A stretch of 63,529 bases of DNA, the filler included, from Globobulimina sp. (taxonomy: Eukaryota): assembly GCA_003354225.1 (NCBI GenBank). It is 11 parts of 11 records of this genome, joined end to end, with 100 filler letters (N's around TTAATTAATTAA, not from the genome) between each part and the next. Parts side by side here need not be neighbours in the genome. Positions count along the whole stretch, not along the records: positions 34,753 to 40,434 come from PIVH01000469.1; 10 more parts are not named here. One strand, 5' to 3'. Below are positions 33,378 through 42,735 of the stretch, in pieces (position 1 is the stretch's first letter; each line of letters begins with the position of its first letter). The notes beneath the pieces were generated by a model, which worked only from the letters and a program-made list of their open reading frames with translations, did not search any database and was not told where the DNA came from. The position numbers were made by a program, and so were the translations under genes.

Positions 33378-34652
33378 ATGGCAAATTCTGTGAGCTGTTC
33401 AATAGAAACGTCAGGTATCAAATCTGATCCAAACTATATGTAAACACGTTTCATCACAAAATAAACAGAATATTACAAAATTGAAATGTATGAATGCAGC
33501 GTCACATTTACCGCCAAACAACCCGTAAAAAACGATTCAACTGTTCGACAATGGGAAGCTGAGTTGGTTCATCACAAAGATGATAGACTTTCCACTTTGG
33601 CCAAAGTTTCATTTTCCGTGATTCATATTAACAAATTATCAGATTTATCTGTAGCGTACCCTGGTTTATCACAACTAGAACTATTTGATGAATACAGGGA
33701 GTCCTTCTTTCATGATCTATTATATTTAGACAAAGCGGAGGTAATGACTGGTTTTCGTGGTTTCGGATATGGCCGTTGTTTGGTACAACGTATCATTGAT
33801 TGTCATGGCCGATGGCACGATCCTGTAATCATTAAACCGTATCCTTTGCAATGGAAAAACATTGATATCCAATCAAAACATAACAAACAATTCCAAAATG
33901 ATATGCAAAAAATGATCACTGTTTGGGAAGAAATGGGATTTAAACAAATCAAATCAACTTCATATTGGTTACGAAATGAAGAATTCAGACAGCCAAAGAT
34001 GCAAACATTTTGCAAATGTTTCCAGCCATCATCCAAAAAGCAACAAATCAAAATGACAGCGAATGCATCAAATCATATCAATGGAGATACCGATTCAAAA
34101 TCAGAATCCGTGGATGCTGCAGATACTGAATCGAAATCCGTGGATACTGCAATTGATATGGACTCATGTTATGTGCAATTCAGTTCAGAACAAAATGCAA
34201 TCAATAATGTGGCGGAAGAGGATTATACAAGTTTATGGAATGCAGAGTTGATACATGAAACAACAGGACGTGATAACGCAGTGTTAGCTACTGCCAGTTT
34301 TTGGTTTATTAATCTCAAGAGACTGGAGAAGGATTGTTTATATAGTCAGATTTTTGCAGTGTTTGATGCAAAGTGTCAAGAATTATACGATTTGTTCTGC
34401 TCTGTGCTGAATGCAGACAATTACGGTGATGGACCGTTTAAATTACATGAAAATGATCGGCTAACTAATTTTCGAGGACGTTTACCCAAGGAAGTATTGA
34501 CTGACTTGGAGAACAAGGGCACGCTGAAGGAATGGTGTAAGTTGGCTTGTTTTAGTGATGAGATGAATGAAGGTGGAGGAGGTAATGTTGTCTATTTGGA
34601 TCGAGTTAAGGTGAATAAATCATACAATGGGTTTGGATACGGACGGTGTTTG
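33378..34652 (+). CDS. Tandem GNAT-like acetyltransferase-fold protein (intron 33415-33468; 3' truncated)
   Basis: Motif-A-like LYLDKAEVMTGFRGFGYGRCL and VYLDRVKVNKSYNGFGYGRCL; PYPLQ...WEEMGF. Confidence 0.6.
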
Positions 34653-34752: not shown

Positions 34753-37700
34753 CACCATTGATAAACACCTAATACTAAGAACTGGCGGCCCTAATAAAGA
34801 ACTATTAAAAATACACGACAAAATAATAAAAAAGTCTACGAAATACCTCAAAAAATTTGCAGCAAATATAAATCAACCTCACACTAAAAATGAGCGGAAA
34901 TTTATCTCCCACATCACCTCCATCACCACCGCCTATATACTACATCTTGCATCAATTAAAGCATTCGGTTTGGCGGACTTTAACACTACGAATAAATGGT
35001 CGACGCTGTCACGTAAACAAATCACTTTGAACATAAAACAGAGATTACTAATGAACACAAATAATAATACTAATGAGGGTAAAAAACTAATGGCTGAGGC
35101 TGAGGCTGAATATATACAAAATAAACAAAACACATTGACGCAAAATACCATAAAATTCAGCAATCTCAACCATTCCAGCAAACTGAAGACATTTAAAACA
35201 TACAATAAAAATAAGGACTTTATATTGGATGAGCCCTTCTTAAATTATAATAATACCATAATGAATAAAAACGAAGCGTTATCACAGTTCTTCTGCAAAA
35301 TAAATGGTCCCATAGATGATCCTAATGATAATCCCCAAATAAATAATATAAACGATTTCCAAAAAGTACTTGATATGCCGTTAAATAGCTCCTTGACTTT
35401 CATCCCCCAGATACCGACAGAAAACGACCTAGAAACTGCTTGCCAAACATCACCAACTCCTATATTTACAAATATTGACATGAATGTAGAATATAAAGAG
35501 GAGCCCAATTATGACCCCAATTATGTCCCAATAACACAACCAATAATGAATGAATTATATGCACTGGAACACAGTGACCAGGATTATGACAGTGATAATG
35601 ACGTAATCATAAACATGCCCTCCCAAACCCCGCACACTCCGCCAATCCGTACTGATCTTGTCGAGAGCGATGAAAAAAAGGAAGTTGCGGATGCCCCAAC
35701 CTGCCATAACAACATAAACATGAATAAAAAGGCCAAATATCACTCCGTTGAGTTGGCCATTTCCTATGCGAATCAAAATAGTGCCCCAGGATATGATGGG
35801 ATAAAATCTGTACACCTTAAAACCAACGGACACTCCATAAACGAACTATTATGTACAATGTTCAACGTCTGGAACAAATCATTCTTAATTCCATATTATT
35901 GGAGGCTCGGCACTGTGATACCAATATTAAAAACAAAAGATGGTGATACGCCAAACCAATACAGACCCATTACATTACTGCCTATTATATTTAAAACTTA
36001 TGAAAGACTAATCCTCTGGGAAATGAGTATAAAACACAAATTCAGAAAAAACCTACATACACTACAAGGCGGTAACAGGTCCAGAAGAGGGGTGCCGGAG
36101 CAGATTGGTTGTATCAATTTGATTGCTGAGACTGCCAAAATGAGAGAGATTCCCCTTTATTGTGCCCTCCTTGACATCCGAAAGGCATTTGACACAGTGT
36201 GGAGGAAAGGGCTCCTCTACAAATTAAATAACCAATTTAAAATACCACTAAATCTCTGCAAAATAATTCGGGCGATCTATGATAACTCGCAGTCTGCCAT
36301 CAGAGATCTACCCTTCATAACAAATAAATTCATACTCCATAATGGTGTGCTGCAAGGATCAGTACTCTCCCCTGTCCTCTATGCAGCATTTCTTAATGAT
36401 TTGATTGAAGAATTACAAAACTCAGCATGTGGTGCTGCCTCACCTGACCCCAATGAGCCGATTGCATGCACTTTCTATGCCGATGATATCATACTTACCG
36501 CAAACAAAATCTCCCACTTAAATAAGCTGTTGAAAATATGCCAGAGCCATAGCAACCACTGGAAATATAGCTTCAACAACAAAAAATCTAAAACAATTAT
36601 ATACAATGACAATACCCTGAATTATAATGACAATATAAATACTTACAACATGAATGACATAATGTTAATAAATCACGAATATCATAATATAAATGCGATA
36701 CAAAATAACAAACCCGCCCCAATGATATTAATGCAAAAACCTATAAATAATAAAATAATGGCAATAAACATATACAATAAACTGCAGACTTATAATATTG
36801 ATGATATTCCACACAAACATTTACAACGCTTTTTGGATCATGTCAAATTCTATGGCGATATAACCAATAAACCATACCCAATAATGTGGGATAATATTCG
36901 TTACGATCGTGGATTTGCGCCGTCTGTAATGCATCTAAAGCTGCGACTGAATGGAAAAAGCCTGCACTGCACAACATTTATAAGATATCTTGGTGCTATG
37001 TTGTGCAGCTACGACAACACCAACTTGGTGTCGACGGAGTATACGAATGCAGTGTTTCTGAAAAAACTTGACTCAAAAGCTCACATTTTAGCGACTCTGG
37101 ATTTCAATCACATTTATATTTCACTCGCAGACAAAATACAAATACTAAAGACTTTCTATCTAGTCTACACAGAAATATTTGCCCAAATTCTTGATTGTGA
37201 CAAAATAAAACTGAAACAAGCCACAGACAAACAACTACAAACAATTTATACACAAACAAAAATTAAAAATTTCGTCCCGGCACAACTTTACCTTTGGGCA
37301 GGAATCCCCACACCATACGAACGTTGGGTATCGCTAAAAATCTCCTTTTATTGGAAACTAATAAAAGGAGGGAACATCTCCATGATGCATCAATGGGCAA
37401 AGCTCTCCCATATCCATCACCATAAACTCTTCAAACAATACATTGATTTAAAAAATAAATGGTTGCCGCCGATACGCCTTTCCACAAACAACAACATTAC
37501 ATGGATTGATCCCTTTGACTCCGTTTCCCATTCACATGAACTAAAACCATTAATTGTTAAAAATCAACACATCCAAATCATCAATGCATTAAACCACTAT
37601 CATCCGATCAAAATCCTAAATCATGTCACTGATAACTATAAACCAATGAACTGCTATGAACTTAATGAATTGGCTGATTATGTAAAGAATGACATGATAG

Positions 37701-38917
37701 ATGTTTACCGTGAGATATTCTATAATTTTAACACCAAAAATAATTACTGTCATCTTTGTCACTCCCAAACCAATGTCCCTATTGAATATCATTTAGCAGT
37801 GCTTTGCCCAAACCTAAATATCCTAAGACATGAATACTGGAACCATGCATCTGCAACATTTGCAAAAAGCGGCGCAACAATCAACAAAATACACCATCAT
37901 CTGTACATGCAAAGATTGATCGAACTATGCCAAAATGTCAATACACAAAAAGTCCAATTCTGGAATGTCCTCTGTGGTGCTAATATATTTAATACTGACA
38001 CCAATAAGTTTGCCTACACACACAAACAAATAAACATAAACACAAATAAACATACTTTATACAAAGAAGTAGTCTCCCAAACGCACCGATGGCTCACCCA
38101 CACACTTGACATAAACAGCGGTAATAGCACCATAAGACGTATCCGATCCAAGCACAATTTAGTCCCCTCAAAAATGATAATATTTCACACACGCAATGAT
38201 AACTTCCATGAATGGAGATACTACCAACATAAAATCAACGCCAATGACCTCATAATTGCCACTGATTCTTCACGCGATCCACAAACAAACACAGCAGGCA
38301 TAGGCATCTGTATCATCGATGGAAACAGAATACACTGCTTTGCGCAACCTATTGGGCCCCAATCCAATCATTATGGCGAACTCTATGCTATCCACAAATC
38401 GCAATTTCTCATCAATTACTGCAACATAAATATTTCCAATCGAAGAATCCTAATATTTACAGATTCCTTATTTAATTTCCTCCCCCTTATAATCACTCCA
38501 AAATATTCAAACAAGAAACCATTATCCATCCTATTCAAAAATACACAAAATTATATCAAACGCAATAAAATCATATTATGGAAAGTGAAATCACATACCC
38601 AACCCCACCAACAACCGTTTAATATGATTGCAGACATCCTAGCAGACATTGGTCGACAACATCCACGCAACTCCAATCTCATCACAACAAACTACAATTC
38701 AATCAGATACGCCAAATACAAATCCTTTCTCTATCCACAGGGTATTATACCCAATGACCTTTATTCTCTCGCCGGGATGTTCAAGCAATCGGTGAGCATG
38801 GAGCCAGACTTAGATCCTGGCTGAATGTTCCCCCACTACTATACAATCTACAAAATAAAATGATATATACGATGTAAAAGAAATAAAATTGCAAACAATA
38901 AGATGAAAAATAAATAA
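34753..38917 (+). mobile_element. Non-LTR retrotransposon (5' truncated at contig edge) with an A-rich 3' end
   Basis: Intronless RT-RNase H ORF open from the contig start, followed by a short A-rich tract at 38851-38917. Confidence 0.85.
34754..38824 (+). CDS. Retrotransposon polyprotein: RT, CCHC zinc knuckle, RNase H
   Basis: APGYDGI, YRPITLL, QGGNR, LDIRKAFDTV, GVLQGSVLSP, YADD, RYLG; CHLC...H....CP; RNase H IATDSS / GELYAI / IFTDS / KVKSH / NMIADILA. Confidence 0.92.
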   Translation, partial: TIDKHLILRTGGPNKELLKIHDKIIKKSTKYLKKFAANINQPHTKNERKFISHITSITTAYILHLASIKAFGLADFNTTNKWSTLSRKQITLNIKQRLLMNTNNNTNEGKKLMAEAEAEYIQNKQNTLTQNTIKFSNLNHSSKLKTFKTYNKNKDFILDEPFLNYNNTIMNKNEALSQFFCKINGPIDDPNDNPQINNINDFQKVLDMPLNSSLTFIPQIPTENDLETACQTSPTPIFTNIDMNVEYKEEPNYDPNYVPITQPIMNELYALEHSDQDYDSDNDVIINMPSQTPHTPPIRTDLVESDEKKEVADAPTCHNNINMNKKAKYHSVELAISYANQNSAPGYDGIKSVHLKTNGHSINELLCTMFNVWNKSFLIPYYWRLGTVIPILKTKDGDTPNQYRPITLLPIIFKTYERLILWEMSIKHKFRKNLHTLQGGNRSRRGVPEQIGCINLIAETAKMREIPLYCALLDIRKAFDTVWRKGLLYKLNNQFKIPLNLCKIIRAIYDNSQSAIRDLPFITNKFILHNGVLQGSVLSPVLYAAFLNDLIEELQNSACGAASPDPNEPIACTFYADDIILTANKISHLNKLLKICQSHSNHWKYSFNNKKSKTIIYNDNTLNYNDNINTYNMNDIMLINHEYHNINAIQNNKPAPMILMQKPINNKIMAINIYNKLQTYNIDDIPHKHLQRFLDHVKFYGDITNKPYPIMWDNIRYDRGFAPSVMHLKLRLNGKSLHCTTFIRYLGAMLCSYDNTNLVSTEYTNAVFLKKLDSKAHILATLDFNHIYISLADKIQILKTFYLVYTEIFAQILDCDKIKLKQATDKQLQTIYTQTKIKNFVPAQLYLWAGIPTPYERWVSLKISFYWKLIKGGNISMMHQWAKLSHIHHHKLFKQYIDLKNKWLPPIRLSTNNNITWIDPFDSVSHSHELKPLIVKNQHIQIINALNHYHPIKILNHVTDNYKPMNCYELNELADYVKNDMIDVYREIFYNFNTKNNYCHLCHSQTNVPIEYHLAVLCPNLNILRHEYWNHASATFAKSGATINKIHHHLYMQRLIELCQNVNTQKVQFWNVLCGANIFNTDTNKFAYTHKQININTNKHTLYKEVVSQTHRWLTHTLDINSGNSTIRRIRSKHNLVPSKMIIFHTRNDNFHEWRYYQHKINANDLIIATDSSRDPQTNTAGIGICIIDGNRIHCFAQPIGPQSNHYGELYAIHKSQFLINYCNINISNRRILIFTDSLFNFLPLIITPKYSNKKPLSILFKNTQNYIKRNKIILWKVKSHTQPHQQPFNMIADILADIGRQHPRNSNLITTNYNSIRYAKYKSFLYPQGIIPNDLYSLAGMFKQSVSMEPDLDPG

Positions 38918-39269
38918 CCATGGAAATGCACCTAATCAGTCATCATTGTGAATGAAAGAAAAGGGAAGAAATGGCTGAAATGATCTGTATTGGAGGAAGA
39001 ACAAACAATATGTGTATAAGATAAAAATAGATATGCACAAGAATAAAAATTGATTGGTTGATCTATTAATTCGGGGCGGAATCATCCTTTTTCTTTTTAT
39101 TGATGTTCCGCTTGTTTTTTGCCGCCTTTTCACATGGACCTTGTTTTCGATTTTCTCAAATATAAATTGATAATTTGCTTGATTTTGTATCTTTGTGGTT
39201 ATTGATCGTATGCAATTGTAACTTTGTACTAATCATATTTGGTTTATTTGCTGTGTTTGTGTGTCATTA

Positions 39270-40372
39270 TTTTTCACCGGGAGGTTTTTAAAACTGTTAT
39301 TTTGGGTATCAAATTAAATCACCTACCTCCACTATACCTCCACTTAGTCAACTACCACAACATGGCGTCTTTGCCTCTAAAGTGAAGACGACGTAATCTT
39401 ATGCAGTCACAAGTCCATGGACCAATGCTATGGCAATTTAAGAGACCTGGAAATGGTGTGGATGGGCAAAACATACTCATTGGAACAAAATACTCATTGT
39501 AATCTGCGAGGATTTGATAATATCAAGTGCATGGATTTTTTTTACAATTTATTTGTTTTGTTTTGTTTACAATTTGTGATGTGTTTACTGTGTTTGCGAT
39601 GTAGTGTTTGTGGTGACAGATGGCAGAGGCTACAGGTAAATAATGTACCTACTCGATTTTTGACGATACGGTGCAGTTTCGCGAGGATTGGCGACTAAAT
39701 TGTGGAGGAGATTGTCAGTGGAGGTATGGTGGAGGTAGAAATTGGTGAAAATTGGATTTTTAAAAACAGTTTCGTGAAATTTTTTTTTGATAGAAATATG
39801 CAGAATTGAATTAGAAATATTACGCACCAGAAAGAATTTAGATTGCATCATTATTGCGAATGTTATGGTCATTTTGATTTTTCAGATTAGCACATTCTAT
39901 TGGACAAAATCCAAAGCCTCTGCCATCTGTCACCACAAACACTACATCGCAAACACACTAAACACATCACAAATTGTAAACAAAACAAAACAAAACAAAT
40001 AAATTGTAAAAAAAATCCATGCACTTGATATTATCAAAACAATGAGTATTTTGTTCCAATGAGTATGGACTTGTGACTGCATAAGATTACGTCGTCTTCT
40101 CTTTCGAGGCAAAGACGCCATGTTGACTCACATCGACATTGTTTTGAGATTTGTCATTATAATGTACCAATATCACCATTTTTCGAATTTCATCGTTCTT
40201 GGTCGTAAAACTTTAATACTTTCAAACAATCATAATTAGTATATATGCTATACCTGTGCACTGCTATGAGGTTCTAGAACTGCTTGCAAGCCGGTATACC
40301 TTCAGTTTTTGCAATATTGGAGGTAAGTGGAGGTAGATGTCAATTTTTTTTAAACTCGCCGGGACAATTTTT
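39270..40372. repeat. Nested inverted-repeat structure, possibly two oppositely oriented MITE-like copies
   Basis: 39358-39631 is the reverse complement of 39915-40124 apart from indels; a CTACCTCCAC..ACCTCCA motif occurs forward at about 39323 and inverted at about 39718 and 40319. Confidence 0.8.
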
Positions 40373-40434
40373 TTTTCTGGATTAGCTGTAGAATTCAATT
40401 ATACACATTTAGCACCCAAAAGAATTTAAATAGC

Positions 40435-40534: not shown

Positions 40535-42735
40535 TATATATATTTTTTCGATGTAACCCTGCTATCACTGCTCCACCCACCGCTCTTCACTTTGGCATTC
40601 TCATAAATGGTGCAAATATCCGCTAAATTCTCATCACAGATCATCACACTGAACTTGCTCAATAAGGCGCAGCGTTTATAATGCGGCCGATCCCAATGCA
40701 CAAACTTGATGGGAAACCGCGTCGGAATCTGCAACTCGTGCACGACTTTCTTACTGTTCACGTCAAACAAGGTCATAAACTCCGCACTCCGCAATATCAA
40801 CCGATTGATGCCGCCCTCAAATATATAATTCACGTTGCGCTCACTCATTTTGATCTTTTTTTTGCTGACATTCTCCATGTTCTTCAACATAATCTCGCCA
40901 TCCCCACCCAACACGGCAAACCTATTCCGTGTCACAAACGCCACACTCTGCCCATTGGTACGATTATTGCTCGACTTATTATTGCCTTTCTTGTCCATCA
41001 CATACAACTCATACTCGCTCTCCTCGCTCTTACCACCCTCACTGCTCACACTATCGTAATACATCAAAATATTAATCTCCTGTTCAGAAACACAAAAACG
41101 TATTTACATATTGCTATACTTCTACACATAAAAAGAAACATCAAACAGTACCTTACTACTCCGGTTATACGGATTATACAACAAAAAGCGCGGCCGTTTG
41201 TTGCGTTTGCTACTGCCGCCGCCGACACTCGATATGGATTTGTCGCCATGCGCATGCATGTTGGCCCTCGACGGCATCAACGCTTTGTCATTCTGCGTAT
41301 TTATATTATAACAACGAATGTAGCCGTCGGCGAAATAATAGATGCTCTCCGGCGGCATATAATAAAACGCCGGCCGTTCCCGACTTAATTTGAATATCAA
41401 CATTCCATTATCATGCCCGGCGGCCAACAAATTGAGCCTGGGATGCGCCGCTAAGATCCAATAGCGATCGTTATCTCTGCGAAATGCCAGAGGGGGATGG
41501 TTGCGGCTGACGTCCCAAACGCGCAACGTCTTATCCTCGGAATTAGAAATGATTATATTCTCCTTGGCGTGGAACAATACGCACGAGACGTTGTTCAAAT
41601 GTCCGCGGTAAGTGGTGGTCTCCCACGCACGGCTCCCGCTCATGCGCCACACTTTGATTTCGCGGTCGTCCGCGCCGCTCACCACCAGCGACATGGTGGG
41701 ATGGAAGGCGGCCCAGTTCACGCCGCGAGAGTGCCCTTCCAACACGAACTTGACCACAGCGTCCACGTTGCCAAACACATCGCTGTTGCCGGTGGCACCG
41801 TTGCCGCCCGAACTGCTGCTGCTGCCGCCATAGCCGCCGCTGCTGCTCGCGCCGAATGTGCTGGCTAGACTGCCGCCGGCGGTCGACATGTCGTCTACGA
41901 TGGACGTGGAACGTTTGCGTAAACCGCTGATGTCCCAGACACGGATGGTCTGATCCAACGAGGCGGATAAGATCAAGTCTTCCGTGGCATGCCACTGTGC
42001 GCACATTACGTAGTGGTTATGCTGTGTATTTGTTTTGTTCAGTGCGGGGTTATGGACTTATCCCGGCACAGTGTGTGTTTGTGAGGGGAGGGACAGTGTA
42101 CATACGCCGGTTAATACTAATAAGCAAGTACGAGATTGCCAGTTCCAAATGCGGACAGTTTGGTCGTCGCTGGCGGATAAGACCCACGGATATTGGTTGG
42201 GATGGAAGTAGACCGTGCGGATATAATCGAGATGACCTGTTGTTTTATATATTGGTTGGTTGGGTTGGGTTGGATTAGGTGTACGTGGTTGCGGTACCGT
42301 GTAAGGTGAAAAGGCATCGACGGTTTTGATAATTCCAGACTTTGACTTTGTAGTCATCGCCACCGGAGACGAAGAGTGGCTGTGTTTTGTGGAAATCGAT
42401 GCCGCGGACGGGGCCTTTGTGTGTTGTGTAAGTATGATTTGTTTTTGGTGTTGACGTGTTTTTTTATTTTATTTTATTATTGGGTTTGGTGTTGGATACC
42501 TTCATGTTCTTCAAATGATTCTAAGAGTATCTCCATCCTATAATCATATAATTGAATGATGCCATTGTGTAATGAGGCTAAGATCCATGGACCTGTGGGG
42601 TTAATAAATGTGTGGTTGTTGGTAGGTTGGTCCATGCGATATGTGTTAACAACGGCACATACGATGTGGATGAAAGGCTAAACCCTTTACTCTATTGGTT
42701 TTTGCATCAAATTTGCGTAATAGATCCAATTCCAT
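40535..42735 (-). CDS. COPA: Coatomer subunit alpha, N-terminal WD40 part (multi-exon, 3' truncated)
   Basis: [97 protein letters not shown]. Confidence 0.96.

Follow-up and report, generated by a model that had tools for sequence, protein, structure and literature searches.

A non-LTR retrotransposon lineage of Globobulimina with RNase H behind the zinc knuckle of ORF2

The DNA studied here, a stretch of 63,529 nucleotides from the genome assembly GCA_003354225.1 of Globobulimina sp. (hereafter the window), carries on its + strand (34754..38824) the 3' part of the second open reading frame (ORF2) of an autonomous retrotransposon without long terminal repeats (non-LTR). The element is of the type that uses an apurinic/apyrimidinic endonuclease (APE), and the order within its ORF2 is reverse transcriptase (RT), CCHC zinc knuckle and His-type RNase H. 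By the defining features of these groups it belongs neither to the I group nor to the L1 elements bearing an archaeal-like RNase H. Its lineage probably represents an unnamed deep clade, judged by an RT comparison with anchors of I/Jockey/CR1, RTEX, RTE, L1-like and Proto2-like elements. This lineage likely gained its RNase H separately from the I group and from the L1 of plants and oomycetes.

ORF2 in the window and in full-length copies

The window consists of separate contigs strung together via N spacers, and positions 34753-40434 correspond to PIVH01000469.1 (G000:C469). The ORF2 frame begins at base 2 of this contig. Its 5' part has therefore been lost at the contig edge, directly past the APE domain, and ORFs that precede it in the window do not adjoin it in the genome; an ORF at 33465-34652 was ruled out as ORF1 because it sits on another contig. 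From 34754 to 38821 the frame translates into 1356 residues without a stop, about 700 amino acids short of the full copies. An earlier reading of the sequence alone (the sequence-only reading) had described an uninterrupted ORF of over 1350 codons with a zinc knuckle ahead of a C-terminal RNase H, and both statements proved correct. The RT core (RVT_1) was found by Pfam at 35942..36598 (aa 397-615, E 4e-28) with its YADD at 36476-36487. The knuckle, C-x2-C-x10-H-x4-C, lies at 37748..37807 (aa 999-1018) and was kept in all 10 aligned copies that extend that far. RNase H starts from aa 1165 and matched PF00075, not RVT_3, at 38246..38647 (E 1.3e-6, passing the curated cut-off) when the C-terminal piece was scanned alone, the match being missed in the whole-protein scan. 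Its catalytic residues D1171, E1209, D1237, H1281 and D1294 (codons at 38264, 38378, 38462, 38594 and 38633) were invariant in 14 of 14 aligned domains, and DSS replaced DGS in 13 of the 14; the same reading had already recognised the His-type enzyme and this substitution.

Between the palm and the thumb of the RT, alignment revealed a lineage-specific insert of about 100 aa (36626..36928), which was present in 14 of 17 lineage proteins, as against short spacing in 170 of 184 other RTs. In the related protein P0337 a Pfam chromodomain occupies the place of this insert (aa 1069-1103, E 4.6e-6), and in P0046 a chromodomain inside the RT, between palm and thumb, was recognised by eye only. For the insert in the window a chromodomain reading is unsupported by the sequence: there was no Pfam match, and profile comparison with the P0337/P0046 stretch gave a probability of 1-1.6%, the best decoys reaching 0.9%. 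An Atlas search with the insert of the window returned unnamed clusters only, at 0.88 or lower. A 2A-like motif was not seen in ORF2 by eye. Pfam found no restriction-like endonuclease, and by eye a conserved PD-D motif could not be made out beyond the knuckle.

With the last 1.3 kb as a DNA query there were 41 matches in the genome, and the RT as query gave 138 matches belonging to several families. In four of the copies (C28, C33, C24 and C11) the ORF2 frame runs to 2027-2068 codons, and extension towards the 5' end along them revealed the endonuclease, an APE. The full order of ORF2 is an N-terminal region of about 430 residues to which no Pfam family matched, APE, RT with the insert, knuckle and RNase H. 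These copies thus have the APE and RT in ORF2 and the ORF1 upstream that define APE-type non-LTR elements. ORF1 encodes about 1000 aa and in the complete cases measures 1057-1083 codons from stop to stop. It contains a conserved Cys/His cluster; no Pfam family matched it, and no PDB match fell below E 0.69. Atlas clusters suggesting a giant-virus capsid, at 0.82, were within chance and were dismissed as evidence. The full element is about 9.3 kb long, the 5' ends of the copies aligning at a shared block, and the 5' region has two short blocks of conserved nucleotides. The first 290 or so codons of ORF1 and the first 150 or so of ORF2 were free of stops in all copies seen (L017:8500-9350, L036:200-1100 and other 5' ends), though they were poorly conserved and without a shared ATG. 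ORF2 opens at the stop of ORF1, shifted to the -1 frame, and in 5 of 9 junctions an ATG lies 5 nt behind this stop or overlaps it. This arrangement suggests that translation of the two frames may be linked by stop-start coupling.

The sequence-only reading had also proposed recent activity of the element. Open frames have been retained by many long copies despite large divergence. Compared with the two nearest copies, the ratio of nonsynonymous to synonymous substitutions (dN/dS) was about 0.03 in RT and 0.05-0.07 in RNase H. Recent activity is inferred because the frames are intact and under purifying selection; the nearest long copies, however, are far apart, with a dS of 0.8-1.3. Many subfamilies may have been active in parallel, each insertion being young. 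The contig depth over the ORF mostly resembled that of the 3' flank in one run, which is perhaps the source of the assembly, and read runs X2 and X3 gave next to no coverage. Two copies were found to be rearranged: L089 (G000:C45052:300-440) has lost the knuckle and RNase H by an internal deletion of about 1.2 kb, and in L040 (G000:C14) about 1.2 kb of other sequence has been inserted, roughly 520 nt short of the 3' end.

Position of the lineage and origin of its RNase H

Among the 120 RT matches listed, four showed the order RT-CCHC-RNase H, namely P0003 and P0004 (63-67% identity), P0005 (46%) and P0015 (34%); two had the I-type order and most ended in CCHC without RNase H. In other words, metagenome relatives retain the order down to about 34% RT identity. 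A further protein of this order, P0279, was added by profile search. The RNase H profile gave 736 matches, and of the 149 new ones listed 24 had a knuckle upstream and 4 downstream, the remainder being fragments or cellular enzymes. Two of the 24 are L1-like proteins whose RNase H is of the His type. The order is therefore less rare than the sequence-only reading had implied, while its description of the lineage as little sampled was borne out. A pre-APE motif gave 11 matches among the stored proteins, to lineage members only. A scan of metagenome contigs yielded four loci, none extending to the 3' end.

Some of these proteins deserve mention in their own right. P0279 has about 450 additional aa before the knuckle (aa about 1000-1450) with polymerase-A-like motifs visible by eye, and this stretch matches contig G000:C17980 of the Globobulimina genome at 47%. 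P0227 and P0266 are L1-like proteins with RT, CCHC and a His-type RNase H near to cellular enzymes, and probably represent further separate gains of the same order. The RT-CCHC proteins P0032 and P0058 end in the N-terminal hybrid-binding domain of RNase H1 (PF01693) without the catalytic domain.

In an RT tree of 41 rows picked from a larger set (LG+G4), the core lineage received support of 100/95 and the wider group 95/76 and 88/93. The lineage fell outside the anchors of I/Jockey/CR1 (100/100), RTEX (97/94), RTE (100/99) and L1-like elements (100/100), in an open fork with four Proto2-like rows and unnamed groups. Other RT trees gave a similar picture. Approximately unbiased (AU) tests rejected a join with the I-type bearers of RNase H (p 0.00016), with RTEX (p 0.025) and with RTE (p 0.034). 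The RT is thus nested neither among the by-eye anchors of the I group nor among the five by-eye anchors of RTEX.

Two points weigh against a clade of its own. Unnamed database proteins, not Repbase references, served as anchors, and their labels were assigned by eye from the alignment in supplement 7 of PMC5348765. Moreover the AU tests did not reject the joins with the Proto2-like rows (p 0.40), with the whole of I/Jockey/CR1 (p 0.23) and with two L1-like rows (p 0.15). Since Proto1, Ambal and RTETP are absent from this supplement, the RT comparison covers the anchors that were labelled from it. The element might then be a member of a named clade outside the sampling (Proto1, Ambal, RTETP, Proto2 or the dictyostelid NLTR-A/B), its domain order being known in Repbase. 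Besides the Proto2-like join, this is favoured by the range of elements that carry RNase H: the I group (I, Ingi, Nimb, Tad1, R1, Loa, Loner as well as Outcast), the L1 of plants, Proto1, Dualen/RandI and oomycete Utopia (PMC4640811), to which NLTR-A/B are added, with RNase H downstream of RT and a place outside the known RNase H clades (PMC5006619). However, CCHC is described as lying downstream of RNase H everywhere except in plant Ta11 and oomycete L1, whose enzyme is of the Arg type (PMC5348765). Among the 240 RT matches listed, most of them unnamed, there was no dictyostelid, diatom or Naegleria name, and among the stored proteins the pre-APE motif and the RT insert were confined to the lineage. 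We therefore regard membership of a named clade as unlikely and favour the unnamed one. The accessible parts of PMC5408684, PMC11203168 and PMC13746701 held nothing on the order CCHC before RNase H. A literature search that did not extend to Repbase Reports and most subscription papers found no account of the lineage, of foraminiferan long interspersed nuclear elements (LINEs) or of the mini-copies described below.

In a separate tree of RNase H the domains of the lineage formed one group (84/92) inside a 92/96 cluster of mostly retroelement domains, and apart from a candidate host RNase H1 gene, apparently split by an intron (L056:909-2002 on G000:C5180). The domain is of the His type and nearer to retroelement domains than to the host candidate, so a separate gain is likely; the donor looks more like another element than like the host, as far as the domain sequences tell. 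The sequence-only reading had inferred an independent capture of an RNase H that keeps the His loop of cellular RNase HI. An independent gain is likely; a cellular source is not borne out by the tree, in which the domain groups with retroelement RNase H, though the join with the host gene was not rejected (p 0.057). Several observations count against this view of the origin. The tree, with 46 rows and 152 columns, contains 16 open forks; neither the join with the host gene nor that with an archaeal-type (Arg-type) domain (p 0.15) was rejected; and comparison of the RNase H profile with the PDB gave as its best match 3U3G, presumably an archaeal-type entry, in a weak match limited to the first half of the profile (E 7e-4).

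Alternatively, the RNase H might have been inherited from a common ancestor with the I group and then moved behind the knuckle. The 92/96 cluster does include seven I-group-type domains, and an RT position as sister to the whole of I/Jockey/CR1 is among the joins retained. In the free RT trees, on the other hand, several RT-CCHC groups without RNase H lay nearer to the lineage than did the I group, so that common ancestry would need several losses. A tree uniting every RNase H domain of the lineage and of the I type in one clade was rejected (p 0.024), in a set which includes long branches. We consider common ancestry quite improbable and the separate gain the better explanation.

The same genome contains at least four more LINE families (L048-L055, L058-L063, L068 and L069). 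One has the structure APE-RT-CCHC and no RNase H; in three others RNase H precedes the knuckle, and among these three one has LMDD for YADD. A CRE-like ORF on the - strand of G000:C1551:1-4152 (L057) carries a His-type RNase H upstream of RT. This domain groups with the host RNase H1 candidate (96/91), and L057 is the clearer case of host capture.

The presence of an RNase H of their own in some LINEs has been called enigmatic (PMC5348765). The lineage would contribute one more gain of the enzyme, located as in the L1 of plants and oomycetes and of the other type, and it has relatives without RNase H for comparison. Moreover, in this single genome RNase H precedes the knuckle in some elements, follows it in others and stands ahead of the RT in still others.

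The 3' end and its mini-copies

Two RNA hairpins are predicted within the last 20 codons of ORF2. Hairpin 1 (38768..38796) lies within the last ORF2 codons, and hairpin 2 (38802..38822) has the stop codon at its end. They are followed by a 10-nt 3' untranslated region (UTR) and an (ACT)n tail at which the element ends (38825..38841). A 35-nt pattern found 93 such 3' ends, each with a UTR of about 10 nt and then two to five ACT units, whereas the reversed pattern found none. In 37 distinct ends 99.5% of the hairpin cells were paired, compared with 24-39% in slid controls. Five of the 17 hairpin pairs had changed on both sides, counts that are inflated by the relatedness of the copies; three of the six pairs of hairpin 2 covary, and two of these link third codon positions. 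The dS was 0.18 in the hairpin region and about 1 elsewhere. Comparison of the 3' end with Rfam returned nothing significant.

Of 80 ends examined, 35 belonged to long copies and 34 to shorter copies with both flanks, and 11 without flanks were dropped. More than half of the short copies (19 of 34) begin 59-65 nt before the end, a span of 7 nt at the foot of hairpin 1 on its 5' side. Six begin inside the hairpins (36-54 nt), and nine reach further, about six of which resemble long copies without a close reference. Target duplications of at least 5 nt abutted the boundary in 12 of the 34, against 1.15 in shuffled pairings, so that the search for copies and target duplications had a positive outcome. 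The 3' repeat tail, the 5' truncation and the variable target duplications are those of APE-type non-LTR elements. The mini-copies do not have the shared head of a short interspersed nuclear element (SINE): their 5' flanks differ, and the target duplications abut the hairpin. It is a point against the preponderance of mini-copies that a short-read assembly favours short insertions over those of 100-400 nt; this bias against longer inserts does not explain the 7-nt peak of starts. One mini-copy is adjoined by a CTP synthase gene, the 17 best matches of which showed 65-75% identity and included a named Ammonia protein, the next being at most 56%; this makes a foraminiferan host likely.

How might the mini-copies arise? 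By the established mechanism of target-primed reverse transcription (TPRT), the ORF2 protein would recognise its own RNA stringently at the 3' end by binding the double hairpin there, the APE would nick the DNA, the RT would prime on the ACT tail, and RNase H would strip the RNA from the hybrid ahead of second-strand synthesis. In its mechanism, we infer, the element is an ordinary LINE of the stringent type that has an RNase H of its own. Most likely the ORF2 protein would drop its template as soon as it had copied past the site to which it binds itself, and loss of the template there would leave insertions of about 80 nt starting at hairpin 1.

Another source could be RNA that was cut beforehand. 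Decay in the 5'-to-3' direction would stall on reaching the 3' end, which is structured or bound by protein, and the remnant of about 80 nt would be copied whole, like a SINE without a head. This agrees with the 19 starts in the 7-nt span, which come from several subfamilies and include 10 with an adjacent duplication of at least 5 nt. The summed contig depth, 560 in the bin of the 3' tip against 6-54 in the ORF bins (one run, possibly the assembly source), and the loose ends before 38768 in 4 contigs point the same way. The six copies that begin inside the hairpins fit truncation during copying instead. Pre-cut RNA is a serious contender to which we give rather less than an even chance, and we continue to favour loss of the template. 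In the mini-copies of about 80 nt nature offers a minimal template of TPRT, on which 3' recognition and early truncation can be tested directly.

A bolder reading, put forward tentatively and with some doubt, would combine these features. The lineage would be an unnamed, widespread protist LINE clade in which ORF2 serves as a scaffold of modules: the His-type RNase H that follows the knuckle, a chromodomain or what remains of one within the RT and, in one branch, a family-A-like polymerase. The double hairpin in its coding region would be a self-contained mobile unit of about 80 nt, a head-less SINE remade by each subfamily.

Neighbouring features and known systems

Downstream of the element, at 39358-40125 of the window, there are nested long inverted repeats with arms of up to 80 nt that are 97-100% complementary. 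The depth is raised there, and the structure is like that of a foldback element or a miniature inverted-repeat transposable element (MITE). The next contig carries on the - strand (40535-42468) a WD40 gene with introns, coatomer-alpha-like by eye.

Among known systems, plant Ta11 and oomycete L1 share with the element the order APE-RT-CCHC-RNase H and the two ORFs (PMC5348765). Their RNase H is archaeal-like with Arg, whereas that of the element has His and matches PF00075; the RT of the element did not group with the two by-eye L1-like anchors, though the join was not rejected (p 0.15), and its tail is (ACT)n. With the I group it has in common APE, RT, a His-type RNase H, an RT motif B' that is similar by eye and a tail of short tandem repeats, but the order of knuckle and RNase H is the opposite, the B'-C linker is long and the RT lies outside the group. 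The long linker is found in RTEX, RTE and Proto2, where the sequence after YADD is also alike by eye and the anchors have an APE-RT-CCHC backbone. The labelled anchors of these clades have no RNase H, however, the RT of the element lies outside those of RTEX and RTE, and its ORF1 has no Pfam esterase match. Dualen/RandI elements possess a restriction-like endonuclease besides APE, which was not seen in the element by Pfam or by eye.

The dictyostelid NLTR-A/B, compared here by description only, resemble the element as protist non-LTR retrotransposons whose RNase H lies downstream of RT and which fall outside the clades known for RNase H; they may have a bearing on its novelty. They target tRNA genes (PMC5006619); no such target is apparent for the element, whose flanks were not scanned for tRNA genes. 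Finally, LINEs with stringent 3' ends and the SINEs that share LINE tails have a conserved stem-loop with compensatory changes and a tandem-repeat tail, as does the element, the tail of the I element consisting of TAA repeats (PMC3747384). The element differs from them in that its two hairpins lie in coding sequence and its short copies lack a shared head.

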